A stretch of DNA of 32,000 bases from Acaryochloris marina S15 (GCF_018336915.1 NZ_CP064923.1:870001-902000); one strand, 5' to 3'; positions 1,486 through 32,000 are shown, numbered from the stretch's first letter. The notes: generated by a model from the sequence alone, not told the origin. Made by a program: numbers and translations.

Positions 1486-2412
1486 CTACTTCTTCTTTTC
1501 CCGACTGAGCAACGCCACACTAAAAGTGACTAAAATAACGCCGAGAATTTGGAGTGGATTGAGGGTTTCTTGAATGGCAAACCAAGCCAAGACAACTGTT
1601 AATGCTGGATTGGTAGCCCCGATGATAGATGCCGTGGTGGCCCCAATCAGACGAATGCCCATATTGTTGAGCAGGTGACCACTGGACGTGGCAATGGCAG
1701 ACAACAAGCCCCCGATCCATAATGGTCCCCACTCAATTGCCTCAGGCTGCGTCCAGAACAGCAAGCTTATGCAGGACAAGACCAGCGTGACCGCGAAGCT
1801 AATCCAGGTATAGGGAACAGGATGAACCTGCTCAAAGCTTTTTTGAGCGAGAACCGTATAGATGGCATAGGCAACCCCAGATGCAATCCCTAATCCAACC
1901 CCCAACGCATTGGCCGTTAGTCCAGTTTGGGGAACGGTAAGAGCACTGCCGAACAGGACTAATCCCATCACCATCCAGCGAAATCGGGAAGGTGCATCGC
2001 CAAAGAAGTACCAGGAGAGGAGAGCCGTAAAAACGGGAAAGGTGAAAAATAAGGTTAAGGCGATTCCAGTGGGAATCAAGCCCACAGAAAAATAGAGGAG
2101 TGCTAGGTAGAGATACATAAATACTCCCCCTAACAGCGATCGTATGAGATCAGGACGATTCTGCTTTTGACTCAGCTTTTTTAAATCCCACCAAAGCGCC
2201 GGATAAAACAATGGGGTCATGGCCGATACCAACGGCACCACCAGGACCATCCGCATTGCCATTAACAAAAAAGAGTTAGGGAGAGAAGGGACAACGAATC
2301 CTCCTGTTTGTAGCAGGCCAGCAACGGTATATTCGTTAAACAGAATGCGGACGATAACGTTCTGAAAACAAAAGAAGACTGCGCCCAGTAAGACGATCAG
2401 AAAACCAATCAT
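1486..2412 (-). CDS. EamA/DMT-family transporter
   Basis: 308 aa with about 10 predicted TM helices and the two-fold internal EamA-type organisation. The glycine-rich helix ends are typical of drug/metabolite transporters. Confidence 0.8.
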   Translation of the reverse strand: MIGFLIVLLGAVFFCFQNVIVRILFNEYTVAGLLQTGGFVVPSLPNSFLLMAMRMVLVVPLVSAMTPLFYPALWWDLKKLSQKQNRPDLIRSLLGGVFMYLYLALLYFSVGLIPTGIALTLFFTFPVFTALLSWYFFGDAPSRFRWMVMGLVLFGSALTVPQTGLTANALGVGLGIASGVAYAIYTVLAQKSFEQVHPVPYTWISFAVTLVLSCISLLFWTQPEAIEWGPLWIGGLLSAIATSSGHLLNNMGIRLIGATTASIIGATNPALTVVLAWFAIQETLNPLQILGVILVTFSVALLSREKKK

Positions 2413-4746: not shown

Positions 4747-7700
4747 CTAAACTGCTTCCACTAAAGCTTTCTCGATTTCAGGTAAGGCCCCCTTCATCTT
4801 GCCGAGCCAGTCGATCAGGCTTTCCAATTGGCGGTCGGCTTTCATGACGCCGAGGCCCCGTACCGTCACTTTTCCGGGGAAGTATACGAAACGCGATCGC
4901 AAATGTTCAGGTAAGTTTTCCTTCAAAAGTTTAAAGGCAGGTTCTTCCATCGGCGTTTCCAGCATTACATGTTGTTTATCCTCTGGTTTGATGCGCGAGA
5001 ACCCTAAGGATTTCGCCACCTGTTTCAGCTCCATAATCCGCAAAAGCTGTTGGGCCGAATCGGGAATCGGACCATAGCGATCGTTCCAGTCCACAGCGGT
5101 TTGGGTAAGGTCGGCTTTTGTCTCTGCCGAGGCCACCGCTCGATAGGCACTCATCTTTTGATCTAAATCGGTGATGTAATCGGCAGGGATAAAGGCGGTT
5201 AGGTTGAGATCCACCTGCGCTTCGTCCACCTGCGGGATTTCTTGGCCGCGAATTTCATTAATGGACTCGTCCAGCATTTCCATATACAGATCAAAGCCGA
5301 TGGCCTCCATTTGCCCTGACTGTTCTGCCCCTAGCAAATTACCGACGCCGCGAATTTCCATATCCCGAACCGCTAACTGGTAGCCGGACCCGAGCTGGCT
5401 AAATTCTTGCAAAGCCCGGAGTCGCTTGCGAGCCTTCTCCGTTAGAGAACTTTGATTGGGATAAAACAACCAGGCATGGGCTTGAATCCCGGCCCGACCC
5501 ACCCGACCTCGAAGCTGATAGAGCTGGGAGAGGCCAAACTTTTGGGCATCTTCAATCAAAATCGTATTCACTCGGGGAATATCCAGGCCCGATTCAATAA
5601 TGGTGGTACAGACCAGGATCTCGGCATCGCCATTGCTAAAGGTCAGCATGGTTGCTTCTAGCTCCCCTTCCACCATTTGACCGTGGGCAATGGCAATTCG
5701 GGCACTGGGCACCATTTCCCGCAGCTTACCTGCGACTTCTTCGATGCCTTCCACTCGGGGCACCACATAGAAAATCTGTCCCCCTCGGTCTAGTTCTTGG
5801 CGCACGGCACTACGGATCGATTCCGAGTCGTAGGGAGAAAGATGGGTTTTGATCGGACGGCGAGAAGGAGGCGGGGTGGTAATCAGGCTCATTTCTCGAA
5901 CGCCAGACAGGGCCATATATAGAGTTCGAGGGATAGGCGTAGCGCTGAGGGTGAGAACATCTACTTGGGTTTTCAGGGTTTTGATTTTCTCTTTTTGGTT
6001 GACCCCAAACCGCTGTTCTTCGTCGATGACGAGTAGGCCCAGGTCTCGGAAATTCACACTCTTGCCCAGCAGTTGATGGGTGCCAACGACAATATCTAGC
6101 TCTCCAGTTTTGAGACGATTTTGGACATCTTTCCGTTCTTCGGCACTGCGAAATCGGTTGAGAAGGCCAATTTGAATGGGGTAGGGGGCAAATCGTTCTT
6201 TCAGAGTGTGGTAATGCTGCTGGGTCAGAATGGTTGTAGGTGCGAGGAAAGCCACCTGTTTACCTGCGGTCACTGCTTTGAATACAGCACGGGTTGCAAC
6301 TTCGGTTTTACCAAATCCAACATCACCACAAACGAGTCGATCCATGGGGCGAGGATTTTCCATATCCCGTTTGACATCTTGGGCAGCTTTAAGCTGATCG
6401 GCAGTGGGCTGATAAGGGAAAGAGTCTTCCATCTCTTCTTGCCAAGGCTGATCGAGGGGAAAGGTAAATCCCTCCTGCTGGGCTCGCTGGGCATAGAGCT
6501 TGAGCAGATCTACCGCCAGCTTTTTAATGGCCTTGCGAACCTTATTCTTGGTTTTCTCCCAGGCTTTCCCAGACATTTTATTGAGCTGGGGACGACCTTC
6601 GCCGGTATTGCGGAATCGAGATAAGGTGCCCAACTGATCCGCCGCTACCCGCAAAGTGCCATCGGCGTATTGCAATACCAAATATTCACGGGTTTCGTGA
6701 TTTAGAGTCAGGCTCTCTAACTTGAGGAACTTGCCAATCCCGTGATTGCGATGGACGACAAAATCCCCAGGCTGGAGTTTATTGGGGTCGACCTGTTTAG
6801 ACGTTGCCCGCCGTCGCTTGCGAATATAGGTGGGAGTCGCTAGGGTATGCTGACCGAAAAATTCCCGGTCTGTAATTACCACCGTGCGGAAGGTGGGCAG
6901 CACAAAGCCTTCTAGTTCAGCTAACCCGGAATACTTGAGGGCAACGGGGGTGCGCTGCTCCTGCAGTTTGTCGATGGCAAGGAAATCTTTGGGGTTAGGG
7001 ACAAACTGGGCGGGGCAGTCATGCTCCTGCAACAGGGCCACGGAACGAGAGGGCTGAGCCGAGATTAGCCAGATACTGAATTTGCGATCGCGCTCCCCCC
7101 TAATCGTCTCCGCCAACTTGCCAAACTGGTGAGGCACCGCAGGTACCGTCCGACTGGACAGGTTTAAGCCCCCTTTCTCCTCTGCCAACTCCGACAGAAA
7201 TATCCGCTCAAACACTTCAATTTGTTCTAGTGCGGCCTCAAAATTCTGGTGCACCTTGGGTAATGGAGTGTCTGGTAGACTGACGGACTCCCATTGCTCT
7301 TGGGCATGTTCCACCCAGCGGTTGCTGTGGGGCAGACATTGATTGGGCTCATCGACCACCACCAATGTATTCTCTGGCAGGTAATCCAATAGAGAAGCAG
7401 GTGTCTCAAAGGCCATGCCTAGAAAACGCTGACTGCCTTCTAAGGTCCCGGTTTCTAATAGAGCCAGTTCTTCTTCGGTTAAGTAGGTTTTGACTTGGGT
7501 TTGCTGGGCCTCACTTAGGTTAGCTAAGGTGATTGGCGCAAAGCTAGTGGGGGTCAGGGTGAGCTTTTCACTACTATCTAAGGAGCGCTGACTAGTGGGG
7601 TCAAACTCCCGCATTTTGTCCAGCTCGTCCCCGAACCACTCCAAACGAATGGGCAGCTCGGAGGCCACGGGAAAGATATCGACAATGTCCCCCCGCCGAC

Positions 7701-8241
7701 TCCATTGGCCTTCGGTTTCCACCAGGGATACCCGTTCATAGCCGAGTCGAGCTAACTTATCGCTCAGGGTTTTTAGGTCTAGCTCAATCCCGGATTCCAA
7801 ACTTAAGCAATAGGGTTCGAAGACCTGCACGGGCGGCAAGTGGGGTTGTAAGGCCCGTTCCGTGGTCACAATCGCTAAGGGCTTAGCCTCTGGATTGGCA
7901 TTCAGTTTTAGGGTCTCGGCCAAAACCTGCAATTGTCCCCAGATCATCTCGGATTCTCGATCTAAGGATTCATAGGGGGAAGCTTCTGAGGTGGGGTAAA
8001 AATAAACGGTCTGCCAGCCCATGGCTTCTAGCTGAGTGGCCCAGCGTCCGGCTTCTTCTAGGGTGGCGGTGACTACAAACAGATGCTGCTGTTGCTGTTG
8101 GGCTAGGGCAGAGGCGACCAGTCCCTTCGGCAAGCGAGGCACACCACATAAATCCAAGAACCGCTGCTCTTTCAATTTCAGCAGCAACTCTTCCGACAGG
8201 CGGGAACGCCCTAATGCTTGCACTATGGCAGAAAAACTCAT
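4747..8241 (-). CDS. mfd: Transcription-repair coupling factor Mfd
   Basis: 1164 aa with a UvrB-like N-terminal region and a CarD/TRCF RNAP-interaction region ([12 protein letters not shown]). Superfamily-2 helicase motifs are present: [11 protein letters not shown] (Walker A), DEEQRFG (DExx) and QLRGRVGR (motif VI). A TRCF C-terminal domain follows. Confidence 0.97.
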
Positions 8242-11051: not shown

Positions 11052-12659
11052 TTGACTCACCGTTACTCAGAGCTGATTTCAGACTTAACCCCCTCTTCAA
11101 ACCTTTATGTTCTAACGCTAACGTCTGATAACGACACCTTGAATCAGAATGGATTTGCGTTCGGTTCATGGGTAAGGGAGAATCAACGTCAATACAACGG
11201 GGGACAGTTGTTTCGTTTCAGGAAAACCATCTTGTCTTCATCTAAGTCTTTCAAAATTCCTACGGCTGTTCATTTATCCCTTGGAGCTAGCGGTCCAGAC
11301 GTTCGGGAATTACAGGATTTTCTAGAACATTTTGGCTATCTTCGCTCTACCCAATCAGACCACCCCTACGCGTTTCTCCAAGACTCTACCCCTCTACCCA
11401 CGGCGACACCCGATAGGTTTGATGAAGCCACCTTGGCGGCCTTACATCACTACCAACAATTTCAAGGACTGCCGCTTTCCGATCAGTTAGATGAAGCGAC
11501 TATCGGCCAAATGAGTTTACCTCGCTGTGGTGTCCCAGATGCCCCGGTAGGAGAGTTTGTCGCTCAGGGCAATAAATGGTCTAAAACAGATCTGACCTAT
11601 GGGTTTCAGGAGTTTACGGCTGACCTCACCCCTGCACAAATCCGGGGTGCGATCGCATCTGCGTTTCAGCTCTGGAGTCGAGTCACTCCGCTTACCTTTA
11701 GAGAGGTCAGTTTTAGCAGCAATCCCGATATTGTGATTCGGTTTACCACCGGCGACCATAACGATGACTTTCCCTTTGATGGCGTCGGTAACGTTCTCGC
11801 CCATGCTTTTTTCCCTCCCCCGAATGGCGGCAATCTAGCAGGCGATACCCATTTTGATGATGCCGAAACCTGGAGTGTGACATTACCCACATCCGGTCGA
11901 GATCTGGCCACCGTTGCTGCCCATGAATTTGGTCATGCATTGGGCTTATCCCACTCCCAAGTTCAAGGAGCATTGATGGCCCCCACCTACAGAGGTCCCC
12001 AACGGTTTCTCAGCCCAGACGATATCAACGGGATTCAGTCTCTGTATGGAGATGTGAACAACAACCGATTTGCGGATATTACCAACGATATCTATCGTTC
12101 AGAAATCCTGGCAGCCGTTGACCTGAACTTTATTGCTGGATTTAATAACAACACCTTTCAGCCTTTGGCTTTTCTGACTCGGGAACAGCTCGTGTCCATG
12201 AGTTTAGAAGCCTTAAAAAATATTTCTGACTTGAATCTACAGCTCCCCAGCCAAGTCAGTACCAGTCCATTCCCAGATGTGAATGCCTCTCGCTGGAGTG
12301 CCGCTAAAATCAGTTTTGCTAGTGCAAATCAAATCGTGGCAGGCTATCGAGATGATACGTTTCGGCCTACCGTAACCGTGACCCGAGCAGAGATGATGGC
12401 GATCCTGCGACGCACCGCTGAATTTGTGCGATCGCGTCAGGGTTTCAACCCCCAGGTACCTACAATCCAAACACCTTTCGCCTTCAACGATATTCGGAAT
12501 CACTGGGCAGAAGCCGTGATTGAGCAAATGTCTGGCTATTGTGGGGTTGCCTCCCCCTTAAACGAGAGAGGAAGGGCATTTTTCCCGACCCGGCCAGCTC
12601 GTCGCAACTATGGTGCTGCAGCGACCTTACGGATGCTCAACTGCGTGCGGGCAGTATAG
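11052..12659 (+). CDS. Matrixin (M10A, MMP-like) zinc metalloprotease with a PG-binding-like prodomain, a cysteine switch and three C-terminal SLH domains
   Basis: The PRCGVPD cysteine switch and the HEFGHALGLSHS zinc site are present, with a Met-turn (ALMAPTY). The prodomain reads GPDVRELQDFLEHFGYL...HHYQQFQGLP. There are three SLH repeats: FADITNDIYRSEILAA..., FPDVNASRWSAAKISFA... and FNDIRNHWAEAVIEQM.... The assumed TTG start is uncertain and no signal peptide is visible. Confidence 0.9.
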   Translation: MTHRYSELISDLTPSSNLYVLTLTSDNDTLNQNGFAFGSWVRENQRQYNGGQLFRFRKTILSSSKSFKIPTAVHLSLGASGPDVRELQDFLEHFGYLRSTQSDHPYAFLQDSTPLPTATPDRFDEATLAALHHYQQFQGLPLSDQLDEATIGQMSLPRCGVPDAPVGEFVAQGNKWSKTDLTYGFQEFTADLTPAQIRGAIASAFQLWSRVTPLTFREVSFSSNPDIVIRFTTGDHNDDFPFDGVGNVLAHAFFPPPNGGNLAGDTHFDDAETWSVTLPTSGRDLATVAAHEFGHALGLSHSQVQGALMAPTYRGPQRFLSPDDINGIQSLYGDVNNNRFADITNDIYRSEILAAVDLNFIAGFNNNTFQPLAFLTREQLVSMSLEALKNISDLNLQLPSQVSTSPFPDVNASRWSAAKISFASANQIVAGYRDDTFRPTVTVTRAEMMAILRRTAEFVRSRQGFNPQVPTIQTPFAFNDIRNHWAEAVIEQMSGYCGVASPLNERGRAFFPTRPARRNYGAAATLRMLNCVRAV

Positions 12660-16897: not shown

Positions 16898-17806
16898 TCA
16901 AGGCATGACTAGACGAGGAACGTTCTGCTTAAAGAAGTCAATAAAGACCCTGAGCTTGAGGGGCACATAGCATCTAGAAGGATAGACGAACCACGCTGCA
17001 GTACTAAAGTCTGTACCTGTGACCTCATAGTCTGGTAAGACATCCACCAAGGTTCCTGTGCGTAAATCTTCATTGATCAGCCAGTTGGGGAGTAAGGCCA
17101 ATCCCATATTTGCGATCGCACATTGTTGCAAGGCAATACCATTGGAAATCACCGTGTTGCCATGAATGGGCACTTCCGTTAGAGTTCCCTGGGCATCTTT
17201 AAACAGCCATTGGGTCTGAAACCCCGCCAAAGGAAACCGCAGACAATTATGATCCGCAACATCCTGGGGAATAGTGATCCGGGGCGACTGCTTCAAATAG
17301 TCTGGACTGGCACAAACCCGATATTGGGTGCGCATCAACTGCTGAGCAATCAGGGTGGAATCCTGGAGCAGTCCCAGGCGGATCGCCACATCAATCCGGT
17401 TCATTAACAAATCCTCAACAGCATCTGAAAATAATAAATTGACCGTCAGGTCCGGATACAGTTGCTCAAACTGAGGCAAGAGGGGCACAATACACTTCAG
17501 CCCAAATGAGGCCGAGACCGTCACCCGCAACTGACCCTTGGGTTGCCCCACCACATCTGCTGCGATATCAGACGCTTGTTGCAGTTCTTCGACTAAAGGC
17601 TCAATGCGATCAAAGTAAGTTTTTCCGGCTTCCGTCAGCGAGAGTTGGCGAGTCGTCCGCTGCAAGAGTCGGAGGTCCAGTTCCTTCTCCAGACCTGCGA
17701 TTGCCCGCGATACCGACGACGGATCAATATTGCGATCGCGAGCCACTCTCGCAAAACTGCCCTGCCTAACGACATCCACAAACAACTTCAGTACTGATAT
17801 ATCCAT
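16898..17806 (-). CDS. LysR-family transcriptional regulator
   Basis: MDISVLKLFVDVVRQGSFARVARDRNIDPSSVSRAIAGLEKELDLRLLQRTTRQLSLTEAG is the LysR wHTH. A LysR substrate-binding domain follows. The start is set at the internal ATG (17804-17806). Confidence 0.9.
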   Translation of the reverse strand: MDISVLKLFVDVVRQGSFARVARDRNIDPSSVSRAIAGLEKELDLRLLQRTTRQLSLTEAGKTYFDRIEPLVEELQQASDIAADVVGQPKGQLRVTVSASFGLKCIVPLLPQFEQLYPDLTVNLLFSDAVEDLLMNRIDVAIRLGLLQDSTLIAQQLMRTQYRVCASPDYLKQSPRITIPQDVADHNCLRFPLAGFQTQWLFKDAQGTLTEVPIHGNTVISNGIALQQCAIANMGLALLPNWLINEDLRTGTLVDVLPDYEVTGTDFSTAAWFVYPSRCYVPLKLRVFIDFFKQNVPRLVMP

Positions 17807-17865
17807 TGCACGCGCAATAATCGGTCCATGCAGGCTAACCTTAAAGACATTTTTGCATGAATTAT

Positions 17866-17888
17866 TTTTTGATTCATGAACATCATGC
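17866..17888. promoter_or_regulatory. Inverted repeat CATGAAT-N9-ATTCATG in the LysR/peroxiredoxin divergent intergenic region (candidate LysR box)
   Basis: The 7-bp arms at 17866-17872 and 17882-17888 were read directly. The location fits the usual LysR autoregulatory geometry. No functional evidence. Confidence 0.3.
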
Positions 17889-17988
17889 ATGAGTCTCATG
17901 CATCAATCCGTCTTTATTGTTCAATTTTTCGTGAGTACAGTGGAGACAAATCAGTTTGAATTACGATCTGCAGTCACCGGAGGTTGCC

Positions 17989-18636
17989 ATGTCCCTCGCC
18001 ACAGAATTACAAGCCGTTACCGAAAACGTCCGTCAAAAGGCTCCAGAAAACGTCTTTTCCACCATGGAAGCCGCAACTGCCAAACTAGCTGCAACCGGGA
18101 TTACAGACCAAGCCTTACAACCCGGCCAAACCATGCCAGATTTTGAGTTGCCCGATGCCACTGGGAAGCTGGTGAGCAGCAGCGAATTACGCACCCAAGG
18201 TCTGCTGCTAATTTCCTTCTATCGGGGCAACTGGTGTCCCTACTGCAATCTTGAGTTGCAAGCCCTACAAGCTCACTTGGACAAAATCACTGCCCAAGGG
18301 GCCACCCTCGTAGCTATTTCTCCTGAAGTCCCGGATCAATCCCTGACTACTCAAGAAAAGTTTGATCTGAAGTTTCCAGTGCTCACCGATATAGGCAACA
18401 AAGTCGCTCGGCAGTTCGGGCTAGTGTTTACCCTCGACGAAAGCTTACGACCGATTTATGAAAGCTTTGGGATTGATGTCCCTACTCATAATGGCGATCA
18501 GAGCTTTGAATTACCTATCCCAGCCACTTATCTTGTCGCTGCTGACGGCACAGTTCTAAATCGCTTTATTGATGTTGACTATCGCGAGCGGTTAGCCCCA
18601 GAAACTGCTTTGACTTGGCTACAAGCAGCTCAGTAA
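17989..18636 (+). CDS. Peroxiredoxin-like (AhpC/TSA, thioredoxin-fold) protein with a CPYC motif
   Basis: MPDFELPDATGKLVSSSEL...LLISFYRGNWCPYCNLELQAL. ATG 17989 is preceded by ggagg. Confidence 0.8.
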   Translation: MSLATELQAVTENVRQKAPENVFSTMEAATAKLAATGITDQALQPGQTMPDFELPDATGKLVSSSELRTQGLLLISFYRGNWCPYCNLELQALQAHLDKITAQGATLVAISPEVPDQSLTTQEKFDLKFPVLTDIGNKVARQFGLVFTLDESLRPIYESFGIDVPTHNGDQSFELPIPATYLVAADGTVLNRFIDVDYRERLAPETALTWLQAAQ

Positions 18637-20642: not shown

Positions 20643-21008
20643 ATGTCCGGGATATTCCAAGATAGTAAAGGCAAGCAATCCTCAGGAAGGCTGCAGACCA
20701 CCGCATCGGTATTGGTGGGACTTGGCCTCGCCATTACCCTGGCTGCTGGAGAATGGCGAGGAAAAGCTTTTTCAGAAAACCTATATATCCTAACTGGGGC
20801 CTTGACGATTGGCGGCGCAGGCATGAAGGGCTTACAAAAATTTTCAGAGCATGACAAACAGCCTCAATCCGCTGCACCACCCACAAAAGTAGCAGCCCCT
20901 CAAATCGTAGCTGTGCCATCTACCGAGGTGGTTTCAACTTCCTCTAAAGTCATCAAGATTCAAACCCCTGAAAAAGAATTAACCGCCGTTTTACAGGAGG
21001 GCTGGTAA
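20643..21008 (+). CDS. Holin-like small membrane protein (two TM helices, proline/alanine-rich tail)
   Basis: ATG 20643 is preceded by aaggag. TM1 is TTASVLVGLGLAITLAAG and TM2 is LYILTGALTIGGAGM. Its stop overlaps the next start (TAATG at 21006-21010). The holin role is inferred from topology and context only. Confidence 0.45.
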   Translation: MSGIFQDSKGKQSSGRLQTTASVLVGLGLAITLAAGEWRGKAFSENLYILTGALTIGGAGMKGLQKFSEHDKQPQSAAPPTKVAAPQIVAVPSTEVVSTSSKVIKIQTPEKELTAVLQEGW

Positions 21009-22516
21009 TGCCATTTATTACAGCGAAAAAGAATACTCTCCTAGCCCCCTTACCCAACCAACCCCACCTTCAGCCCTTAAATCGATTAGCAAAAGTGTAT
21101 GAAGGAGGAATCCTAGGCATCATTAAAGTGTCTGCCGTAAATTCACAGTTGGCGGAGATTACCTTAGCAGGCCCCTATACCTGGCATGACCATTACCCAA
21201 CGATTGAAACAGGTGTCACACGATATATCAATCCAGTATCGTGGCATATTCCAGAGGATGCCTGGGAGAAACCAGAAGTCCCTGCCTTGCCCGCCCCCAC
21301 TTCTAACCTCTCCCAACCAGAGACTCCAGGGATTCCCTTGCTACCACCAGAGGTCGCCCAACTCAACCACTTCTACGAAGGCTGTCAAAGGAAATTAGCG
21401 GATGGGCGAATTCAAGCTTATCCCGATCCCAGAGCCGGAAGTGGTGGGCTACCCGTAACGATTGGCTGGGGCAGTACCTATTACAAAGATGGTTCTGCCA
21501 TCCAGATGGGAGACATCATTACCCAAACCGAAGCAGATGAATTATACGATTACATTTGCCACAAGGATTTTTGGATCAAGTTGCAATCGACCATCCCTTA
21601 CTGGGACGACATGACCCATCAACAGCGGGCCGCTTTAACCAGCTTTGCCTATAACAATGGCGCTGATTTTTACGGTTCCCCCAACCATAGAACCATCACA
21701 CGCAACTTAAAAGAAAAAGATTGGCAGGCGGTCCCTGGCACCCTGATGATGTACCGTAACCCCGGCGAAAATGTAGAAGTGGGGTTAGGTCGCCGCCGAT
21801 ATGCCGAAGCTAAAGTCTGGTGTGGTGAAGTGCCAACGACCGCTTGTGCCGCCGCTGCCCAGGAAATTCAGACTGCCCAGGACTGCGAACCCATTGAACA
21901 GCGGCTCAAAACCAACCCACCGGCGGTGGCAGGTTTTGAATCTATGGTAACCATCTCAACACCAATCCAACCTTCTGGTCCTCGGCAGCTCCATGTTATA
22001 GCAGGGATGAAAGGCCCAAAGTCTCATCCAGATGCCCATGGCTTTAAACCCGGAGACTATCATCTAGTGGCCAATGATGCCGTAGGGAAGATCAAGTGCT
22101 ATGACTATGACGGTACTTTGATGTGGGAATTATCATGTCTCTGTCGCGGTCAGTTTGAGGACAATTACTTTGGCAAACATGGAGATACCCCGGCAGGTCT
22201 CTACAAATGTGGGCAAATCTATCGGGACTATGAGCAAGCGGGTGACCATGCTGGCTATACCCGCGACCGCATGTCTTATGGCTGGTTTAGTTTTGATCTG
22301 GTTGAACTAGAAAGCCAAGAAGCTAATCTGGGTCGGGCAGGGATTATGATCCATGGCGGCGGCAGTGGTTGCGGATGGCCAGGCGCATGGAAACCGAAGC
22401 AACCTATGTTCGCAACCCTAGGCTGTATCAGAATGTATAACCAAGATCTACGAGACAAAGTTGTGCCCTTATATGATCAGCCCGGCGCCACCCTTTTTGT
22501 CAGTGTCTATCAGTAG
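21008..22516 (+). CDS. Two-catalytic-domain cell-wall enzyme: GH24 (phage-type) lysozyme plus YkuD-like L,D-transpeptidase domain
   Basis: The GH24 pattern is FYEGCQRKL...AYPDP....LPVTIGWGST...QQRAALTSFAYNNG (E/D/T catalytic arrangement). The C-terminal part GDTPAGLYKCG...AGIMIHGGGSG...ATLGCIRMYNQDLRDKV matches the His...GC[IV]R motif of L,D-transpeptidases. The N-terminal ~110 aa are unassigned. Confidence 0.85.
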   Translation: MPFITAKKNTLLAPLPNQPHLQPLNRLAKVYEGGILGIIKVSAVNSQLAEITLAGPYTWHDHYPTIETGVTRYINPVSWHIPEDAWEKPEVPALPAPTSNLSQPETPGIPLLPPEVAQLNHFYEGCQRKLADGRIQAYPDPRAGSGGLPVTIGWGSTYYKDGSAIQMGDIITQTEADELYDYICHKDFWIKLQSTIPYWDDMTHQQRAALTSFAYNNGADFYGSPNHRTITRNLKEKDWQAVPGTLMMYRNPGENVEVGLGRRRYAEAKVWCGEVPTTACAAAAQEIQTAQDCEPIEQRLKTNPPAVAGFESMVTISTPIQPSGPRQLHVIAGMKGPKSHPDAHGFKPGDYHLVANDAVGKIKCYDYDGTLMWELSCLCRGQFEDNYFGKHGDTPAGLYKCGQIYRDYEQAGDHAGYTRDRMSYGWFSFDLVELESQEANLGRAGIMIHGGGSGCGWPGAWKPKQPMFATLGCIRMYNQDLRDKVVPLYDQPGATLFVSVYQ

Positions 22517-24725: not shown

Positions 24726-25790
24726 TCAGCTACCCATCAGTGTCTGGGCAAGTCCGATAAAGAGCGGTATTCCTATCGCAAGGGCAACCGGCGTGCCGAC
24801 GGCTGTAGACGAGCCGATGTAGGCAGAGGGATTAGCCGACGGGATGCCAGCTCGTAAAGTGGGTGGCCCTGAGATGTCTGAACTAGAGGAGGCGATGACG
24901 GCCAGAATCACACAGCCGCCAGGGCTAAATCCTGTCGTGTAGTGGGCAATCATACCGAAACCGAAGGCGATAAGCCCATGCAGTAGTGGCGCGATTGCAG
25001 CATAGAGAGCGTACCACTGGCCTACCTTGCGCAGCTCGCCAATCCTTGCCGTGGCCTCCATCCCCATAACCAGCATCAGGATCGAAAGCAGGCCGCGGAA
25101 GAGGGGATTGAAGAAGCTCTCATAGACACTTTCTGGCCGGGTTAGTATGCCTAGGGCCAGACCGAGTAGCAGGGCCGATAGGGCCGAGCCCTGCAAGCTT
25201 TCCTTGACGATGGGCCATATCTTGACCCGTTTGCTCTTGCGGCGATACTTAACTGGGCTGCCGAGAGACTCCTGCTTACTGAGAGCTTCGTCTGCGGTAT
25301 CGTACTGCTTGCTGGTATAAACGCTAGCCAAGACAATCGCAGTCACAAGGGCTGGAATATCCATAAAGGGATAGAGGGCAGCGGCCCAGGGTTCATATTG
25401 GATACCTTCCGTTTCCATTAGGGTCAGGGCCGCGGCGAGGGTAGAGCCACTCACAGCACCAAACAAGCCCGCGGTCGCGATCGCATCCACGGTCTTAACG
25501 TTCGGCATCTTGGCCAAGGTGTAGCGTCCGATGAACACGATTAGGATCCCCACGACCATGGCGAATACCGCGGGCAACAGCATCTCCGCCAGATTAGCGT
25601 TGCGGATCGCAATGCCACCGCTCAGGCCGACTTTTATCAGCAGCATAAAGACGATGAACTTATAGATCGCATCTGGAATTTGCAGGCGGCTATTGACGGC
25701 GGCAACGACCATCCCACCAATCAGAAAGCCAAGGGTTGGAGACTGCAACTTCGCCAGGAAGAGCGTCATGAAATCGGACAAAAAATCCAC
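24726..25790 (-). CDS. sbtA: Sodium-dependent bicarbonate transporter SbtA
   Basis: MDFLSDFMTLFLAKLQSPTLGFLIGGMVVAA...FMLLIKVGLSGGIAIRNANLAEMLLP closely resembles the Synechocystis SbtA N-terminus as I remember it. It has about 10 TM helices in two inverted halves with a central cytoplasmic loop. Confidence 0.92.
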   Translation of the reverse strand: MDFLSDFMTLFLAKLQSPTLGFLIGGMVVAAVNSRLQIPDAIYKFIVFMLLIKVGLSGGIAIRNANLAEMLLPAVFAMVVGILIVFIGRYTLAKMPNVKTVDAIATAGLFGAVSGSTLAAALTLMETEGIQYEPWAAALYPFMDIPALVTAIVLASVYTSKQYDTADEALSKQESLGSPVKYRRKSKRVKIWPIVKESLQGSALSALLLGLALGILTRPESVYESFFNPLFRGLLSILMLVMGMEATARIGELRKVGQWYALYAAIAPLLHGLIAFGFGMIAHYTTGFSPGGCVILAVIASSSSDISGPPTLRAGIPSANPSAYIGSSTAVGTPVALAIGIPLFIGLAQTLMGS

Positions 25791-26361: not shown

Positions 26362-27747
26362 ATGAGTGAAGTATTGGTTCTAGAGACAGAGCAAACTCCC
26401 CCTACTGGAACCCAGTCCCCCCCTCGCAAACCGAAGTGGACCGATACCCTCGCTTACATCGCCAATCCCGATCAATTTTGTCGCCACAACCTGAAGGAGC
26501 ATGGTCCTATTTTTAGGACGAGCGTGTTTGGAGGCACCACCATTTTTGTCGGCTCAGCTCAGGCAGTGAAAATGGCCCTTAATGGTGACCTCCGCTATAC
26601 GGAAATTGGTCTTCCCCAAACCACCATGACTATGTTTGGAGAATATAGTCTGTTTCAACGTCCGGATGTACATCGACAACGCAAAAGTTCCTTACGAGCA
26701 GGCTTAGCAGGGCAAGCCATCCAGGGCTATATTCCTCAAATTAATGATGTGATTGTTCAAGGACTCCAAGCTTGGCCAGACCTAGGAGACATTGCCCTGT
26801 TCCCAGCCGTAGAGCAGATCTGTTTTGATGCTTTAGTCCCCCTATTGCTGGGCGTAGAGCTAAAGGATGCTTACTTTCAAGGACTCCCCATTTCTTCCAA
26901 AACAGAACTCAAACAAGTCTACAAAACCTTTTTTGATGGCTTCTATGGTTTAGTCCCCTGGCGTTCATCTCTAACCACGTTTGGTCGGGGTCTCCAAGCA
27001 CGCGCTCGTCTGATCGAATTTATGCAGGCCGTGATTCGAAGACGGAAATCTGAGGCTAACTTGGATCCTGCCTCAGATTTCCTGTCCATGATGTTGGTGA
27101 GTCAAGCAGCAGATCCAGACAGTGTATTTAGTGACACCTTCATCGAGAATCAATGCTTATTGCAGTTATGGGCATCCCACTATGAAATCAGTGGCTTAGT
27201 CTCATCCTGGATATATCAACTGGGCCTTCATCCTGAGCATTTTTCCGACCTCCAAGCTGAACAAAAAACGATACAAGACGAAGCGTCTACCCCAATCACA
27301 AGTGACCCACTCAAAATGGCCTCATTTCTGGAAGCCACTATTCAAGAAACACTGCGCACTCTCCCCCCTTCATCTACCGCTAACCGTCGCCTTACCCAAT
27401 CCGTAATTTTAGACGGCGTACTCTATGAAAAAGGGTGGACCTTAATTGCAGAGCCCAGGATTGCCCATATCCTGCCAGAACATTTTTCCCAACCTGATGC
27501 CTATCACCCCCATCGGTTTATGGAGGATGCCAACTCCAGAGAGAAATATGCTTATATCCCCTTTGGGGGTGGGGTTCATGCTTGTTTAGGCGCTCAGCTC
27601 GCGATGGTCGTAGCCAAAATTTTTGCTAGCCATCTGTTGCGCCAGTTTGAATGGCAGGTGCAAGATACAGCATCCTTTGTGCAATTCCCCTTGAAGAAAA
27701 TAAAAGACAACTACACCATCCCCATATCTCGACTCCAACAGCAATAG
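26362..27747 (+). CDS. Cytochrome P450 (CYP120-like)
   Basis: The heme-binding loop is FGGGVHACLGAQLA (FxxGxxxCxG). The ExxR motif is ETLR. Length and overall layout are typical. Confidence 0.92.
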   Translation: MSEVLVLETEQTPPTGTQSPPRKPKWTDTLAYIANPDQFCRHNLKEHGPIFRTSVFGGTTIFVGSAQAVKMALNGDLRYTEIGLPQTTMTMFGEYSLFQRPDVHRQRKSSLRAGLAGQAIQGYIPQINDVIVQGLQAWPDLGDIALFPAVEQICFDALVPLLLGVELKDAYFQGLPISSKTELKQVYKTFFDGFYGLVPWRSSLTTFGRGLQARARLIEFMQAVIRRRKSEANLDPASDFLSMMLVSQAADPDSVFSDTFIENQCLLQLWASHYEISGLVSSWIYQLGLHPEHFSDLQAEQKTIQDEASTPITSDPLKMASFLEATIQETLRTLPPSSTANRRLTQSVILDGVLYEKGWTLIAEPRIAHILPEHFSQPDAYHPHRFMEDANSREKYAYIPFGGGVHACLGAQLAMVVAKIFASHLLRQFEWQVQDTASFVQFPLKKIKDNYTIPISRLQQQ

Positions 27748-27775
27748 AGGCTGGAGCAATCCCCGTTTCTAAATC

Positions 27776-28765
27776 TTAAGACGTAGACACACAGCTTTCA
27801 GCCCCATCTGCCATCTCGTTCGTTTCCATCGGTCGAGATGACTGCCGATTAAAGCTCGTCACGCAAATCCCTGCCATGATCACCAGAAATGCCAAAAATT
27901 GAGCCATCGAAGGTCGTTCACCGTTGAGCAAAAAGGCATAGGTCACCCCAAACACGGGGGACAAAGACGTCCATTTCCCTACCGTTTGTGAATTCAACTG
28001 CTCAAGAGCTGAATACCAAAGAAATTGGGCCAGGACAATAATGATCAGGGCATAGACCACCATCACCATCCAGAGTTGCCCCGCCAGCACATCTGTAAAA
28101 TGTTCCGGGCCAAATACCAGATTAGCAATGATAAAAAAGATGATGGACGAAATCAAATTACGGCTAAACACCACAATGCGCAGATTCGTTTGTTGAGACA
28201 ACATCAGCTTTCCCAAGGTAGAGCTGGCCGCATACACCACCGCCGACAGCAAAATCAAGAGGTCTCCCTGATTGATCTGAAAATTGCTGGTCTTCAGCAC
28301 AATCGCCAACACACCGGCAATAATCAAGGAAAACCCGATCCATTCAAATCGCTTAATTTTGCGTCCTAAAATCAGGGTGCCGACCAAGGCATAGATGACT
28401 GGGCCAAGACGTCCCAACAGCACCGCATTCGTAACAGAGGTATAAGCCAATCCCACAAAGATTAAAGAAGAAAGGAGGGCGGCTAAACAACCGTTCAAGA
28501 ACAGTCCAACCTTAATTCGTCGCTCCAAACTCAGCCAATCTTGAATCAGGGAACGCCAACCAAACCAGGTCCCCACCGCTAGGGCAGCACATAAATTGCC
28601 CACAAATAAGACATTGCAAAAAGAGATAGGAGTTTGGGTTCCCCCACTCAGCAACATGGCATTGGCCACCAAAAAAGCAATCAGAGAAGGCCGTAACGCC
28701 GCCAAGGCTCTGGATATGACTAAAGCAATTTTGGGGTCAATTGCAGAGAAGGACAGTTGGGGCAT
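27776..28765 (-). CDS. EamA/DMT-family transporter (last gene of the five-gene operon)
   Basis: 329 aa with about 10 TM helices and a duplicated EamA-type architecture. Its start abuts the stop of the upstream gene (28765/28766). Confidence 0.8.
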   Translation of the reverse strand: MPQLSFSAIDPKIALVISRALAALRPSLIAFLVANAMLLSGGTQTPISFCNVLFVGNLCAALAVGTWFGWRSLIQDWLSLERRIKVGLFLNGCLAALLSSLIFVGLAYTSVTNAVLLGRLGPVIYALVGTLILGRKIKRFEWIGFSLIIAGVLAIVLKTSNFQINQGDLLILLSAVVYAASSTLGKLMLSQQTNLRIVVFSRNLISSIIFFIIANLVFGPEHFTDVLAGQLWMVMVVYALIIIVLAQFLWYSALEQLNSQTVGKWTSLSPVFGVTYAFLLNGERPSMAQFLAFLVIMAGICVTSFNRQSSRPMETNEMADGAESCVSTS

Positions 28766-29530
28766 CTACAGCAGTTTATAGGTGGCCGGATCCGCTTTGA
28801 GAACAAACGCATCCGCATATTGAATCACTTCACCCGTAATTTGCACAGGATCTGCAACCAGGTCTAGAACCTTATCATTTACAGCCTTCCCATCCAAATC
28901 TGATAGTAGAAAATACAGCTTATCCCCCACCTGATTGTGAACCACAAACACGGGGGGCACCCCACCACTGAGACAGCGAATGGCACAGGATCGATGGGTT
29001 TTGGTTCGCCCAGGTTTCATCACGCCGGGATAGCATTTGCCATCAACGATTTCTCCCGTTAATGAAAACTCTCCTAAAGAGCTACTTTCAGCTGGTTGTG
29101 CCGACTCTGGAGTTGGGGGCTCCATCGGTTCCGCTGATTTCGTGGCAATCACCGTTAAGTGATTGCGATGGAAGGGCGTACCTTTGAGCTTGACCCATTG
29201 ATTAACATGCTCCAGCACCTTCGGTTTCGGTGAGGTCTTGCCCGTTCCTGACAATAGATAGAGGGAAAAATCACTGGCAGTGCCTACTTCTCCCGTTCTC
29301 GGTACCAATAGGTGAGGAGACGGCTCTCCTACTAGCAGTCCTTCAAACTCAGGAACTTTGGTGCGTTTACCCAAATTGAAGTGATCAAAATGTAAGGGCG
29401 GCAGAATGAAGGCAAAGGCTAAAACACTCAACACTAGGATGGGAATAAACCCCAACAAAAACCGTTTTAATCTGGGCGGCACCCCTAGATAGCCAATAAA
29501 AAATTCATCTTGAGGATCAAGGCTACTCAT
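28766..29530 (-). CDS. Membrane-anchored hypothetical protein with a C-terminal Cys-containing domain
   Basis: The N-terminal TM is FLLGFIPILVLSVLAFAFILPP. The conserved-looking block is GEIVDGKCYPGVMKPGRTKTHRSCAIRCLSGGVPPVF. Family not recognised. Confidence 0.7.
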   Translation of the reverse strand: MSSLDPQDEFFIGYLGVPPRLKRFLLGFIPILVLSVLAFAFILPPLHFDHFNLGKRTKVPEFEGLLVGEPSPHLLVPRTGEVGTASDFSLYLLSGTGKTSPKPKVLEHVNQWVKLKGTPFHRNHLTVIATKSAEPMEPPTPESAQPAESSSLGEFSLTGEIVDGKCYPGVMKPGRTKTHRSCAIRCLSGGVPPVFVVHNQVGDKLYFLLSDLDGKAVNDKVLDLVADPVQITGEVIQYADAFVLKADPATYKLL

Positions 29531-29532
29531 CG

Positions 29533-30594
29533 CTACACTTGGCCGATAACAGCAGGGACAACAGGCGTTCCAGGAAGATTAGGCTTGGCACTGACTAGAA
29601 TCTGATCGCCCTGGAGTTTGACATTAAACGTCGGAATTTTTTCGGTAAATGGCGGTGGCGAAATACCGCTATCGGGTAGGTATTGATAGCCATGCCAAGG
29701 GCAAGTGATACAGCCATCGACAACCTTGCCTTCTCCCAACGGGCCATTTTGATGCTGACAAACATTGGAAATCGCCGAGATTTGGCCGTCATATTTAAAG
29801 ATGGCTACGCGCTCCCCCGCAATCACTGCAATTTTGGCCCGATTCTCAGGAATATCTTGCACACTGCCAACATGCACAAAGCCATCAGCATCCACTTGGG
29901 CTTTGGCCGGTTTTCCAAACAGCGGTGCACCATCTTTTTGGGCTTCTCGCAGGGAAGTCATCAAGTGAATACCTACAATCCACACAAACCCCACGCCAAC
30001 TGCCAGGGTAAGGAAAGGATGGGTATTGGTTTCCAAAGCCCCTAGAACCACATGCCCGACCAACAAGCCATAGGCTAAGTAAACCCCCATATGCAGAGCT
30101 TTCCACACCGGAGCCGTGAGGTTGGTTAGCCAAAAATCATGGCTGGTTGCCGCCATCAAAAACAAGATGACAAGGGCTACGCCTCCCAATGCTTCAAAGG
30201 GAAAGCGGACAAAATCAGCATAGTGAGTATTGCTAACAAACAAGCTGACAATCGGCTCTAGATTGCCAAAGTCGTGATACCAGGCCAAAGCATCCCGGGC
30301 ATGGAGCAGGGCCAGAATAAACATGGTGACGCCCATGTGCCGCCGATTGTAGAGAAGCGGCAAAAACTTAGCGCTAAGACGACTCAGGGGACCAATGGAA
30401 AGAATGACATGGAGCAGGATAAAAGCCGCAGAGCCAAAGGCCCGAATCCAAATACCTTTTAGATCTAGATCGCTACTGAACTGAAGGCTAATGCCTTCAA
30501 AGCAAAAAAGATAGAAAACGACCGTGGACAGCAAAATAATGTCGTAAACAAACTTTTGCCGATTCCACTGAACCGCTTTATATGCAACGCCCAC
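29533..30594 (-). CDS. Fusion of a ferric-reductase-like (FRD/YedZ-type, di-heme b) transmembrane domain with a C-terminal Rieske [2Fe-2S] domain
   Basis: Six TM helices carry conserved His residues (LLHVILS, NRRHMGV, LLHARD, TSHDF, ALHMGV, VGHVV). The Rieske ligands are CQH-x16-CPWH, within a typical Rieske beta-sandwich context. Confidence 0.85.
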   Translation of the reverse strand: MGVAYKAVQWNRQKFVYDIILLSTVVFYLFCFEGISLQFSSDLDLKGIWIRAFGSAAFILLHVILSIGPLSRLSAKFLPLLYNRRHMGVTMFILALLHARDALAWYHDFGNLEPIVSLFVSNTHYADFVRFPFEALGGVALVILFLMAATSHDFWLTNLTAPVWKALHMGVYLAYGLLVGHVVLGALETNTHPFLTLAVGVGFVWIVGIHLMTSLREAQKDGAPLFGKPAKAQVDADGFVHVGSVQDIPENRAKIAVIAGERVAIFKYDGQISAISNVCQHQNGPLGEGKVVDGCITCPWHGYQYLPDSGISPPPFTEKIPTFNVKLQGDQILVSAKPNLPGTPVVPAVIGQV

Positions 30595-30624
30595 AGATAA
30601 CTTCCTCTCAGAATGAATTAGCGC

Positions 30625-31137
30625 TTAAGATTGGGTCCAAAAAGGATCTAGGGGAAATGTAGAAATGATTTCTTTAGTCGCTTGGCTGAACAATAGTAGG
30701 TGTCCCGTTTGGCCCTGCATCGCGTCTGGAACCCGAAATTGACGATTAGATGCTCCTGACAACGCCCCTAACAAGATAGAATCCTGACTCAGTTCCTCCG
30801 GTGGCTTCCCCTGCTGCCAATACACCAACACATCCGGCAATTGGAGATCAGACTGGGGCTGAATATTGATAAAGACATCGCTGCCATCTTGAGCAAACAA
30901 TGTTTCAACCCGGAGTTGAATGTTCTCTTGTTTGAGCAAAGTGGGTTTGCGCTTCGACCTCTGATTTTCCCAAGCAAAGTACGGGACAAATCCTGCTCGT
31001 TGAAATAAGGCGTCCGCTGAGGCATCCACTGGCGCGAAATTTGGCCGCCAGACTAACCCTGCAATAAAACAGAGGGGTAACACAACGGCCAAAACTACAA
31101 AGGAATAGAGGTGAACCTGCCGGCGAGAAATGACCAT
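30625..31137 (-). CDS. Membrane-anchored hypothetical protein (170 aa)
   Basis: There is a single N-terminal TM (LYSFVVLAVVLPLCFIAGLV) followed by a soluble domain. The start codon overlaps the upstream stop by 1 nt (TAATG at 31135-31139 on the minus strand). Confidence 0.65.
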   Translation of the reverse strand: MVISRRQVHLYSFVVLAVVLPLCFIAGLVWRPNFAPVDASADALFQRAGFVPYFAWENQRSKRKPTLLKQENIQLRVETLFAQDGSDVFINIQPQSDLQLPDVLVYWQQGKPPEELSQDSILLGALSGASNRQFRVPDAMQGQTGHLLLFSQATKEIISTFPLDPFWTQS

Positions 31138-31415
31138 TATTGGGCTCCTGCACTTTGCTTAGCGGCTAGTCGATGGGCATTTTTTTCGGTGGGATGACCT
31201 TTGCCTCGCAACAGCCGAATCGCGAACATCGGCCAAAATGCTACCACGCCAGGAATAATTAAAACTCGAAATCCAAGGGCCCAACCTTGAGCGCCAGAAT
31301 CGACCCGCTTGACCAAAAAGGTGACGAACAAAAAAGCGAAGATCAAACCTGCGATCGCATAGGCTCGCACCAGATTAATCACCCACTCAACTACAGCAAT
31401 AGCAGTGCTATCCAT
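31137..31415 (-). CDS. Small two-TM membrane protein (92 aa), first gene of the operon
   Basis: Two hydrophobic helices (YAIAGLIFAFLFVTFLV and VLIIPGVVAFWPMFAI) and a basic C-terminus. Confidence 0.6.
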   Translation of the reverse strand: MDSTAIAVVEWVINLVRAYAIAGLIFAFLFVTFLVKRVDSGAQGWALGFRVLIIPGVVAFWPMFAIRLLRGKGHPTEKNAHRLAAKQSAGAQ

Positions 31416-31563
31416 ACGTCGTCTACCTTCTAGAATTCATAAAGGGCAGTCCTATTAGGTATGAGAATACCAGCCCATTTAGCCATCGGTAAACTACTCG
31501 TCTAGATTTGGCAAATTGCCTCAAGGTTGCCAGAATTAGAACCGTAGGAATGAACGGTACAAC

Positions 31564-32000
31564 ATGCATCGCTTTACTCAGACTCCTAAACGAAAATCGA
31601 TTGCTTTAGCCCTACTTCCCCTTAGTCTTGGGTTATTGATCAGCTGCAGCACTACAGAAGCCCCCTCAGACACTGAATCGCCAGCGTCCGACACCTCGAC
31701 AGAGTCTCTAGATCGCTCGGTTGCTGATCCCAGCGCTACAACGGAGGAAAGTGCGGACAGCTCCGGCACCGAAACTCTAGCCTCTTCAGCCAGTTCAGGG
31801 AAAGTCGATCTGGCAGCCATCATTGGCACTGAAGATGATGGATGGCTCCCCAAAACTCTCTCGGAATATGATTTCAAGCGGGGAATGAGTCCCGAAGAAG
31901 TGGGCAAGATTATGCCTGGAGCTGAAAAGATCTCCAAGTTTGGTTTTAGCGAAGTCCCCGCCAATGGTGTCCCAGGTGTTGATAAGTACAAATTTAGCTT
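31564..32000 (+). CDS. Putative lipoprotein, 3' end beyond the window
   Basis: From ATG 31564 the frame is open to the window edge. MHRFTQTPKRKSIALALLPLSLGLLISC has a signal peptide and lipobox. An acidic Ser/Thr-rich linker follows. This ORF is not in the supplied track because it does not terminate inside the window. Confidence 0.55.
   Translation, partial: MHRFTQTPKRKSIALALLPLSLGLLISCSTTEAPSDTESPASDTSTESLDRSVADPSATTEESADSSGTETLASSASSGKVDLAAIIGTEDDGWLPKTLSEYDFKRGMSPEEVGKIMPGAEKISKFGFSEVPANGVPGVDKYKFS

Follow-up and report, generated by a model that had tools for sequence, protein, structure and literature searches.

The 32,000-nucleotide stretch of Acaryochloris marina S15 DNA analyzed here (GCF_018336915.1, NZ_CP064923.1:870001-902000), which we refer to as the window, carries on its minus strand a tightly packed set of five genes, the first four of which recur in fixed order across a wide range of bacterial phyla. 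These four encode two small membrane proteins, p92 and p170; a fusion of a ferric reductase domain (FRD) to a Rieske domain; and OB254, which in the model is a membrane-tethered protein of two OB folds. We infer that the four products form one membrane complex, and we give about an even chance to the reading we favor, namely that this complex is an outward electron conduit of the MsrQ or NOX kind, leading from the Rieske center through two hemes b to a Cys3His center in the periplasm.

A four-gene unit conserved across phyla

In the window the genes lie, in reading order, as p92 (31137..31415, 92 aa), p170 (30625..31137, 170 aa), FRD-Rieske (29533..30594, 353 aa, with a GTG start), OB254 (28766..29530, 254 aa) and an EamA/DMT transporter (27776..28765, 329 aa; Pfam PF00892), all of them minus-strand entries in the list of open reading frames (ORFs). 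A preliminary description of this DNA gave the junctions as a 1-nt overlap, 30 nt, 2 nt and 0 nt, and both the ORF list and direct reading of the sequence bear this out. The first pair of genes overlaps by one nucleotide within TAATG; the 30-nt spacer ahead of the fusion contains GAGAGGAAG, a GAGG-type ribosome-binding site 8 nt before the GTG; TAG-CG-ATG leaves 2 nt between the fusion and OB254; and in TAGATG the start of EamA abuts the stop of OB254. All five products are identical to Acaryochloris entries (QUY43475-QUY43479), and the orthologs in strain MBIC11017, AM1_4156 to approximately AM1_4160, bear the labels ‘hypothetical’, ‘Rieske 2Fe-2S domain-containing’ and ‘DMT family transporter’.

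Close homologs of the fusion are common in cyanobacteria, and in the first contexts inspected a set of approximately 92, 168, 350 and 255 aa recurred in Leptolyngbya, Acaryochloris thomasi, another cyanobacterium, Verrucomicrobiota and one unclassified genome, with an EamA gene in only some of them. A scan with the OB254 family, at one genome per species, found it in at least 581 species-level genomes and provided the loci for a synteny comparison, in which hidden Markov models (HMMs) of the four families were run against all six-frame ORFs of the fetched DNA. Seventy-eight loci had enough upstream sequence to be counted, and in 75 of these, from 13 named phyla, p92, p170, FRD-Rieske and OB254 lie on one strand in that order, with p92 as the first gene. 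Of the three exceptions, one has no detectable p92, and two have OB254 with none of the other three nearby. The phyla include Cyanobacteriota, Verrucomicrobiota (Kiritimatiellae among them), Acidobacteriota, Planctomycetota, Bacteroidota (Rhodothermia among them), Nitrospirota, Gemmatimonadota, Calditrichota, KSB1, Spirochaetota and Actinomycetota, and stop and start codons that overlap or abut between the four genes are the rule across them. Because the same order recurs in so many loci from so many phyla, it lies far beyond chance.

The conserved unit is thus the first four genes, not five. EamA follows OB254 in 16 of the 35 cyanobacterial loci, often after a gap of 0–11 nt or with an overlap, and in none of the loci compared outside cyanobacteria; in other lineages its place is taken by OlsB/OlsA-like, DinB_2 and DedA-ATP-grasp genes, instead. 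It is a lineage-specific fifth gene, confined to cyanobacteria. The five-gene operon proposed in the preliminary description is tight here, and real for this lineage, but it is not what other phyla share; similarly, of the ‘redox/transport module’ proposed there, the transmembrane redox part holds, whereas the transporter, being outside the conserved unit, was over-read. The transporter itself has two EamA repeats (92 bits over 2 stretches) and, by a simple scan, nine hydrophobic segments against a criterion of about ten transmembrane (TM) helices. It reaches no NCBIfam equivalog cut-off, and identity with the O-acetylserine/cysteine exporter EamA (NF008523) was rejected at 34.6 bits, the cut-off being 472. 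In one cyanobacterial contig (L003:7832-10066) an insertion element with an rve transposase interrupts the EamA gene that follows the module, and the window contains a second, separate EamA-family transporter gene at 1486-2412 (-).

From the Rieske domain to the Cys3His site

Pfam places a Ferric_reduct domain (PF01794) at residues 54–178 of the fusion, at 43.2 bits against a cut-off of 28, and a Rieske domain (PF00355) at residues 240–323, at 57.1 bits against 20.3; these domains, and EamA, had been recognized in the preliminary description. In 65 sequences the histidines at the positions of heme-b ligands, which that description had also picked out—H86 and H98 in TM3, H168 and H181 in TM5—are invariant without exception (65/65). 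So are the Rieske ligands C279, H281, C298 and H301, set in the pattern CQH-x16-CPWH as described earlier, and H107, H152 and H210 are conserved too. Judged by its sequence, and in comparison with the families surveyed by Zhang et al. (PMC3591440), the FRD is of the four-histidine, two-heme type, unlike most YedZ-like short forms, and it is predicted to bind heme b and to transfer electrons across the membrane. Lysines and arginines average 3.1 at the N terminus, 4.1 in loop 2–3 and 3.1 after TM6, compared with 0.3–0.8 in the opposite loops; because of this positive-inside distribution the Rieske domain is predicted to be cytoplasmic, in a six-TM protein with its N terminus inside. Its closest solved relatives in the PDB are soluble Rieske ferredoxins.

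Named families were considered for the fusion and set aside. MsrQ was rejected since the MsrQ model (NCBIfam NF003831) scores 35 bits, under its cut-off of 130, and no MsrP gene (Oxidored_molyb) occurs among the recurrent neighbors of approximately 85 loci. NOX was rejected because the C-terminal FAD/NADPH domain is absent; according to Pfam, just the Rieske domain comes after the FRD. MamZ (NF040998), which is also defined by a fusion to MFS, was rejected at 37 bits against a cut-off of 650, with the FRD part alone covered. The bare combination of FRD and Rieske domains was catalogued in 2013 as ‘M4’ among bacterial architectures (Zhang et al., PMC3591440), in an entry that also lists an FMN module and that gives no partners, operon or function.

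None of the five operon proteins matches an anti-phage profile in PADLOC, and p92, p170 and OB254—the three unrecognized membrane-anchored partners of the preliminary description—have no match in Pfam or NCBIfam, either. Sequence-profile searches of the PDB with these three returned mostly noise, and one match of a TM helix to PsbY. The AlphaFold2 (AF2) model of OB254 (mean pLDDT 88.4) has one TM helix and two beta-barrel domains, and the alignment of the family (A1) adds a conserved N-terminal tail, DEFYxGY. Top Foldseek matches to the model are all OB or tandem-OB proteins, including Thermus SSB, Teb1 and the anticodon-binding domain of LysRS; their probabilities are 0.9–1.0, E is approximately 1e-3 and the TM scores are low. 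The sequence-profile search of the PDB gives one weak match, to the OB-fold lipoprotein 3f1z (E=1). OB254 belongs to no named family and, on these modest statistics, appears as modeled to be a membrane-tethered tandem OB fold.

The residues of OB254 that are invariant in A1 are K165, C166, G169, M171, G174, H179, C182, A183, C186, G189, G190 and P192; the block GKCYPGVMKPG..HRSCAIRCLSGG, singled out in the preliminary description, is present in the protein. The model puts a C-x12-H-x2-C-x3-C site, with a methionine nearby and followed by -x2-GG, in the second OB fold, on a pair of short helices that lie between strands. The ligand order, C...H...C...C, is that of the zinc-Cys3His redox switch in the ZAS anti-sigma factor RsrA, but the spacing differs: H-x2-C-x3-C in OB254 and H-x3-C-x2-C in ZAS proteins.

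Cofactor proteins that are inserted by both the Sec and the twin-arginine translocation (Tat) pathways have a conserved twin-arginine motif before their last TM helix (Tooke et al. 2017, PMC5449189). In A1 there is no such conserved motif before the TM helix of OB254, where the residues vary (RR, KR, GR, TT), nor is there an RR motif in the sequence before TM6 of the fusion. Membership of OB254 in the dual Sec/Tat class was rejected for this reason and, since the motif is not conserved, the Cys3His site is expected to be assembled outside the cytoplasm, probably after Sec export and as a metal ion or as thiols. For the same reason we judge an iron-sulfur (FeS) cluster in OB254 to be unlikely. 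Apparent selenocysteine variants of OB254, at L048 and L087, were rejected because the protein reads through with Cys.

A sign of how the unit is put together comes from gene fusions. An exhaustive profile search finds the OB254 family in 2474 representative clusters at 50% identity (E <= 1e-3), and in some lineages FRD-Rieske and OB254 are joined in frame: in a protein of 603 aa in Nitrospirales (L040) and one of 607 aa in Acidimicrobiia (L072), the Rieske domain runs directly into the DEFYxGY tail and TM helix of OB254. Further in-frame fusions occur among the representatives (P0274, P0281 and P0331). Among the 150 best of these, each longer protein with a Pfam match is either a whole fusion of this kind or a piece of one (these three, together with P0383 and P0290), and FRD-Rieske is the sole fusion partner seen. 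A long fusion at L068 was rejected as an out-of-frame extension of an ORF in high-GC DNA. Because of the in-frame fusions, we take OB254 to be the direct partner of FRD-Rieske. In these fusions a seventh TM helix precedes the OB domains, so that the OB and Rieske domains must face opposite sides of the membrane.

In the conduit as we envisage it, a cytoplasmic donor would reduce the Rieske [2Fe-2S] cluster, and the electron would then move to the inner heme b (H86/H168), to the outer heme b (H98/H181) and, finally, to the Cys3His(+Met) center of the tethered OB254. In some genomes the donors could be neighboring Rieske-fused TPP/FMN dehydrogenases, or GMC or SDR enzymes. p92 and p170 would be accessory or stabilizing subunits, much as p22phox is for NOX2. 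The reducing power delivered in this way would serve defense or repair of the envelope under oxidant, thiol or metal stress, and the cyanobacterial EamA exporter may bring a small molecule, perhaps a thiol, to the same compartment. By analogy, the module would work like MsrQ, NOX or STEAP, but with a periplasmic partner of a new type.

We favor outward flow because every characterized FRD family moves electrons outward (PMC3591440). The sequence itself fixes no direction, and residues predicted to face the cytoplasm are invariant in all four proteins: H152, D153 and H210 in FRD-Rieske, R6 and H9 in p170, E77 and H81 in p92, and D8, F10 and Y11 in OB254. These could form an acceptor site, in which case OB254, or a substrate bound to it, would be oxidized and its electrons passed inward through the hemes and the Rieske center to an acceptor in the cytoplasm. 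We give this a slim chance: no characterized FRD protein works inward (PMC3591440), the Rieske domain is by similarity of the low-potential ferredoxin type, and the dehydrogenase-type neighbors suit donors better than acceptors. The likeness of the four-histidine, two-heme FRD to the NOX type, rather than to the single-heme YedZ type, also raises the question of whether O2 is the terminal acceptor at the outer heme, and the product extracellular superoxide. This seems to us very improbable, for it leaves an obligatory and sometimes fused Cys3His partner in the periplasm unexplained, and the fusion lacks the FAD/NADPH domain.

Small subunits and gene neighbors

p92 is a small membrane protein with two TM helices, as judged by hydropathy and charge. 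Y19, G23, F26, F30, F49, P55, G56, W61, P62, E77 and H81 are invariant (alignment A3), and in most lineages the protein ends in a basic C-terminal tail with an E-x-NAHR motif. p170 comprises a short N-terminal tail, in which R6 and H9 are invariant, one TM helix and an immunoglobulin-like beta-sandwich, with the motif PDLLVYW (alignment A2). The sandwich has no conserved metal ligands in A2, and its AF2 model (mean pLDDT 73, on a shallow alignment) finds only weak beta-sandwich matches in Foldseek: the COPI appendage, CrdA and PDE6D. A word-index search with p170 reached Acaryochloris relatives alone. Both proteins are reduced on Rhizobium plasmids, where the module is also present (L088:7503-9953, L089 and L090). 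There the p92-like protein is 71 aa long and without the ExNAHR tail, the p170-like protein, of 53–54 aa, is the tail and TM helix with the beta-sandwich gone, and the region downstream holds an additional 70-aa ORF and a CopD-family gene.

All ORFs of the loci were clustered, and the recurrent clusters annotated. Outside cyanobacteria, the commonest genes directly downstream of the module encode OlsB-like and OlsA-like acyltransferases, DinB_2 proteins, a 600-aa fusion of DedA/VTT and ATP-grasp domains, TANGO2, an alpha/beta hydrolase, DUF1223, a YHS (seleno)protein and a double glyoxalase. The acyltransferases have ornithine-lipid enzymes as their best NCBIfam matches, below the equivalog cut-offs, and the YHS protein scores above its NCBIfam cut-off. 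Upstream there are GMC and SDR oxidoreductases and a divergent extracytoplasmic function (ECF) sigma factor with a zf-HC2 anti-sigma factor, and some Verrucomicrobiota also have an MsrB-MsrA fusion and a peroxiredoxin. NrsF anti-sigma, DoxX-like and GST genes recur as well. In cyanobacteria the neighbors are EamA, a glutathione-synthase-like ATP-grasp protein, an ArsN1/PPT-like GNAT protein, a CDO-like cupin and an AI-2E transporter; in Nitrospirota, GNAT and CDO genes lie directly upstream of p92. On the Rhizobium plasmids the order is SDR, core, CopD-family gene, DUF1223, lysophospholipase, GST and a peroxiredoxin-like gene, and adjoining the module in Rhizobium leguminosarum WSM1689 are an ECF sigma factor with a DUF1109 (NrsF family) protein, another NrsF-family protein and a member of the chlorite dismutase family.

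Directly upstream of p92, and in the same orientation, several cyanobacteria and one Kiritimatiellae genome have genes for Rieske-GltS(FMN) and/or Rieske-TPP proteins (L016:658-4392, L028:2100-5956, L019:61-2016 and L063:5510-6331). Their N-terminal Rieske domain is joined in one case to a GltS-type FMN domain (537 aa) and in the other to a full TPP enzyme (651 aa), an unusual arrangement, and the enzymes may feed electrons to the module. In other loci this position is held by a DM13 protein.

Because the neighbors include ECF sigma/anti-sigma, MsrBA, peroxiredoxin, DUF1223, YHS, DinB and OlsBA-like genes, they point to a role in envelope oxidant, thiol or metal stress. NrsF-type sigma systems of other bacteria respond to hypochlorite, chromate and cadmium, and control genes of the MsrP/MsrQ (YedY) type (PMC3511200, among other sources).

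Some of the same neighbors lend themselves to the main rival of the conduit proposed here, a periplasmic metal reductase with its own metallochaperone. In this case FRD-Rieske would reduce Cu(II), Fe(III) or another metal at the Cys/His/Met site of OB254, and its purpose would be uptake, cuproenzyme assembly or detoxification, by comparison with FRE/STEAP, FRO2-IRT1 and the OB-fold Cu(I) chaperone CusF. Cysteine, histidine and methionine, all invariant in OB254, are typical ligands for soft metals. A YHS-domain protein occurs near the module in 11 loci, a CopD-family gene follows the Rhizobium cluster, a weakly ZIP-like membrane protein adjoins the core in five cyanobacterial loci, and CrdA, a Cu/Ag protein, is a weak structural match of the p170 model. 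The FRD superfamily includes ferric and cupric reductases (PMC3591440), and NrsF-type sigma systems answer to Cr, Cd and Cu (PMC3511200, among other sources). But none of the metal-related neighbors is universal, the p170 sandwich is without conserved metal ligands, the ZIP match is very weak (E 0.002, below the cut-off), and cox, nos and iron-uptake genes do not recur nearby. Producing Cu(I) in the periplasm would, moreover, be harmful as a response to stress. On balance we consider such a reductase unlikely.

The acyltransferases suggest something different, that the module modifies or redox-cycles an aminolipid resembling ornithine lipid, or a small acylated amino acid. The molecule would be synthesized by the OlsB/OlsA-like, ATP-grasp and GNAT enzymes encoded alongside, with DedA or EamA serving to flip or export it. 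In at least six phyla OB254 is followed by OlsB- and/or OlsA-like genes, often only a few bases away; the VTT protein combines DedA with ATP-grasp; ATP-grasp, GNAT and CDO-like genes occur in cyanobacteria and Nitrospirota, and EamA in cyanobacteria alone; and the model of p170 has a weak likeness to lipid-binding sandwiches, PDE6D for example. Two loci, L041 and L043, keep the order OB254, OlsB, PlsC, DinB2 with no FRD-Rieske nearby. However, neither an FRD/Rieske chain nor a Cys3His OB protein is known to take part in any lipid-modifying chemistry; the OlsB/OlsA matches fall under equivalog cut-offs; and many loci, including this window, are without those genes. We regard a lipid substrate of this kind as improbable.

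The loci just mentioned (L041:8001-8768 and L043:3272-4120) have OlsB-like, PlsC-like and DinB_2 genes after OB254, and FRD-Rieske, p92 and p170 are not in the fetched DNA, which suggests that OB254 is linked to aminolipid genes in its own right. Their upstream genes are unrelated, with no replacement for FRD-Rieske found among them. The ATP-grasp part of the 600-aa ‘VTT’ protein (L075:11662-13464 and relatives), which follows a DedA/UptA-like membrane domain, resembles part of cyanophycin synthetase.

Several points weigh against an outward conduit that serves envelope stress. The direction of flow is taken by analogy, one-electron heme donors are not obvious reductants for disulfides, and the Cys3His site could be purely structural, binding zinc as a site in the OB folds of RPA70 does. 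The p170 model was built on a shallow alignment. Since the neighboring stress genes occur mainly in Verrucomicrobiota and Rhizobium, shared ancestry may account for part of their signal; the operon in the window has no adjoining stress regulator; and the Caulobacter sigma-F motif, GTAACC-N16-CGAA, is absent upstream of the Rhizobium loci. The neighbors spread most widely across phyla are the aminolipid acyltransferases, and export of electrons does not explain them. This link, to acyltransferases and ATP-grasp ligases, is the strongest fact left without explanation; it hints that the Cys3His center has as its true partner a lipid or a small molecule derived from an amino acid, brought to the periplasmic leaflet, and the EamA exporter in the window would fit the same idea.

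A wider picture, tentative and rather doubtful as a whole, would accommodate these strands. In it, the four subunits would be a widespread and hitherto unrecognized Rieske/di-heme route for the export of reducing power through the inner membrane of bacteria, standing beside DsbD and MsrQ and ending at a Sec-exported Cys3His(+Met) center on a tethered tandem-OB protein. The substrate to be redox-cycled by that center would be a thiol, metal or aminolipid, in the periplasm or outer leaflet, that derives from the adjacent acyltransferase/ATP-grasp genes, and the invariant histidines and acidic residues predicted to lie on the cytoplasmic face of the four subunits may form an extra metal site between the Rieske center and the inner heme.

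A 148-bp intergenic region without strand assignment (31416..31563) separates p92 from a divergent plus-strand gene and is, from its position, presumed to be the promoter region of the operon. Promoter and terminator scans of the window gave results at chance level, by which internal promoters are neither supported nor excluded, and positions 27000-32000 matched no riboswitch or RNA family in Rfam. The divergent gene (31564-32000, +, with its ATG at 31564) runs past the end of the window and encodes a predicted lipoprotein (MHRFTQTPKRKSIALALLPLSLGLLISC|S...) whose linker is rich in Ser, Thr and Glu. On the other side, convergent with EamA, is a cytochrome P450 gene (26362-27747, +) that is syntenic within Acaryochloris only, and whose best NCBIfam match is the RiPP P450 ApyO, at 105 bits against a cut-off of 525. 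About 10 kb from the operon, at 16898-18636, lie a LysR regulator and, divergent from it, a gene resembling AhpC/TSA peroxiredoxins. A Redoxin that clusters with the latter is the gene immediately upstream of p92 in one Verrucomicrobiota locus (L061), and another is found a few genes downstream of the module in L046. The surroundings at 4747-8241, 11052-12659, 21008-22516 and 24726-25790 are apparently ordinary chromosomal ones; encoded there are, among others, Mfd/TRCF, a matrixin protease that carries SLH and peptidoglycan-binding domains, a 502-aa protein containing a phage-lysozyme domain, and an SbtA-like bicarbonate transporter.

Relation to known electron-export systems

The closest functional analog of the module is MsrPQ, in which an FRD-family heme-b protein, MsrQ (YedZ), sends electrons outward to MsrP, a dedicated partner in the periplasm whose gene is its neighbor. 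The gene for MsrP (YedY) is part of ECF (SigF-NrsF) regulons for envelope stress. The module itself falls outside the MsrPQ family, because it scores under the cut-off of the MsrQ profile and has no MsrP gene among its recurrent neighbors. Its fusion differs from MsrQ in having four heme histidines, a cytoplasmic Rieske input domain of its own and two extra small subunits, and its partner is a tethered tandem-OB protein with Cys3His, not a molybdoenzyme exported by Tat.

With NOX2/p22phox and the bacterial NOX proteins the module shares the six-TM FRD, two hemes (predicted here) on four histidines of TM3 and TM5, and a cytoplasmic C-terminal input domain; NOX2, too, has a small membrane subunit as its partner. 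The input here is a Rieske [2Fe-2S] center rather than FAD/NADPH, however, the predicted acceptor is a protein center rather than O2, and profile searches detect no similarity of p92 or p170 to p22phox. The FRE, FRO and STEAP reductases—FRO2, for example, with the ZIP transporter IRT1—belong to the same superfamily and also transfer electrons outward, and the Cys/His/Met of the partner, and the YHS, CopD and ZIP-like genes near it in some genomes, recall them. They differ in that the module lacks a flavin domain, has its site on a protein partner, and is linked to metals by association only.

OB folds are used elsewhere at the periplasmic face, tethered there or released to it, to hold a cofactor or metal: heme in CcmE, and Cu or Ag in CusF. 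OB254 can be likened to these, but it matches neither in sequence or Foldseek searches, and it has two OB folds. DsbD/CcdA provides a membrane route by which cytoplasmic reducing power is exported to periplasmic thiol proteins, as the module might also do; DsbD does so by two-electron exchange between cysteine pairs, whereas the module would use FeS and heme one-electron carriers, instead. The architecture M4 of Zhang et al. 2013 (PMC3591440), a ferric-reductase domain with a Rieske domain in bacteria, is the part of the module that had been catalogued before. We found no functional study in the literature of FRD-Rieske, of its combinations of neighbors or of AM1_4156-4160, and, as in the preliminary description, no named pathway was found to match. 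The conserved complex, the operon, the fusions and the genomic context appear, then, to be new, as we found no paper on them.

Delivery of electrons to the periplasm for repair or defense is known for few systems, such as DsbD/CcdA and MsrPQ. The module described here occurs in many groups that dominate in the environment (Cyanobacteriota, Verrucomicrobiota, Acidobacteriota, Planctomycetota, Bacteroidota, Nitrospirota and rhizobia), and three of its four proteins have no family annotation. Its link to genes of the ornithine-lipid type lacks an explanation and can be tested. Once the acceptor is found, three ‘dark’ protein families, and with them a neglected branch of the NOX/FRD superfamily, would gain a function, and the module could explain part of the tolerance of the envelope to oxidants and metals in those groups, or of their reductive handling of metals.

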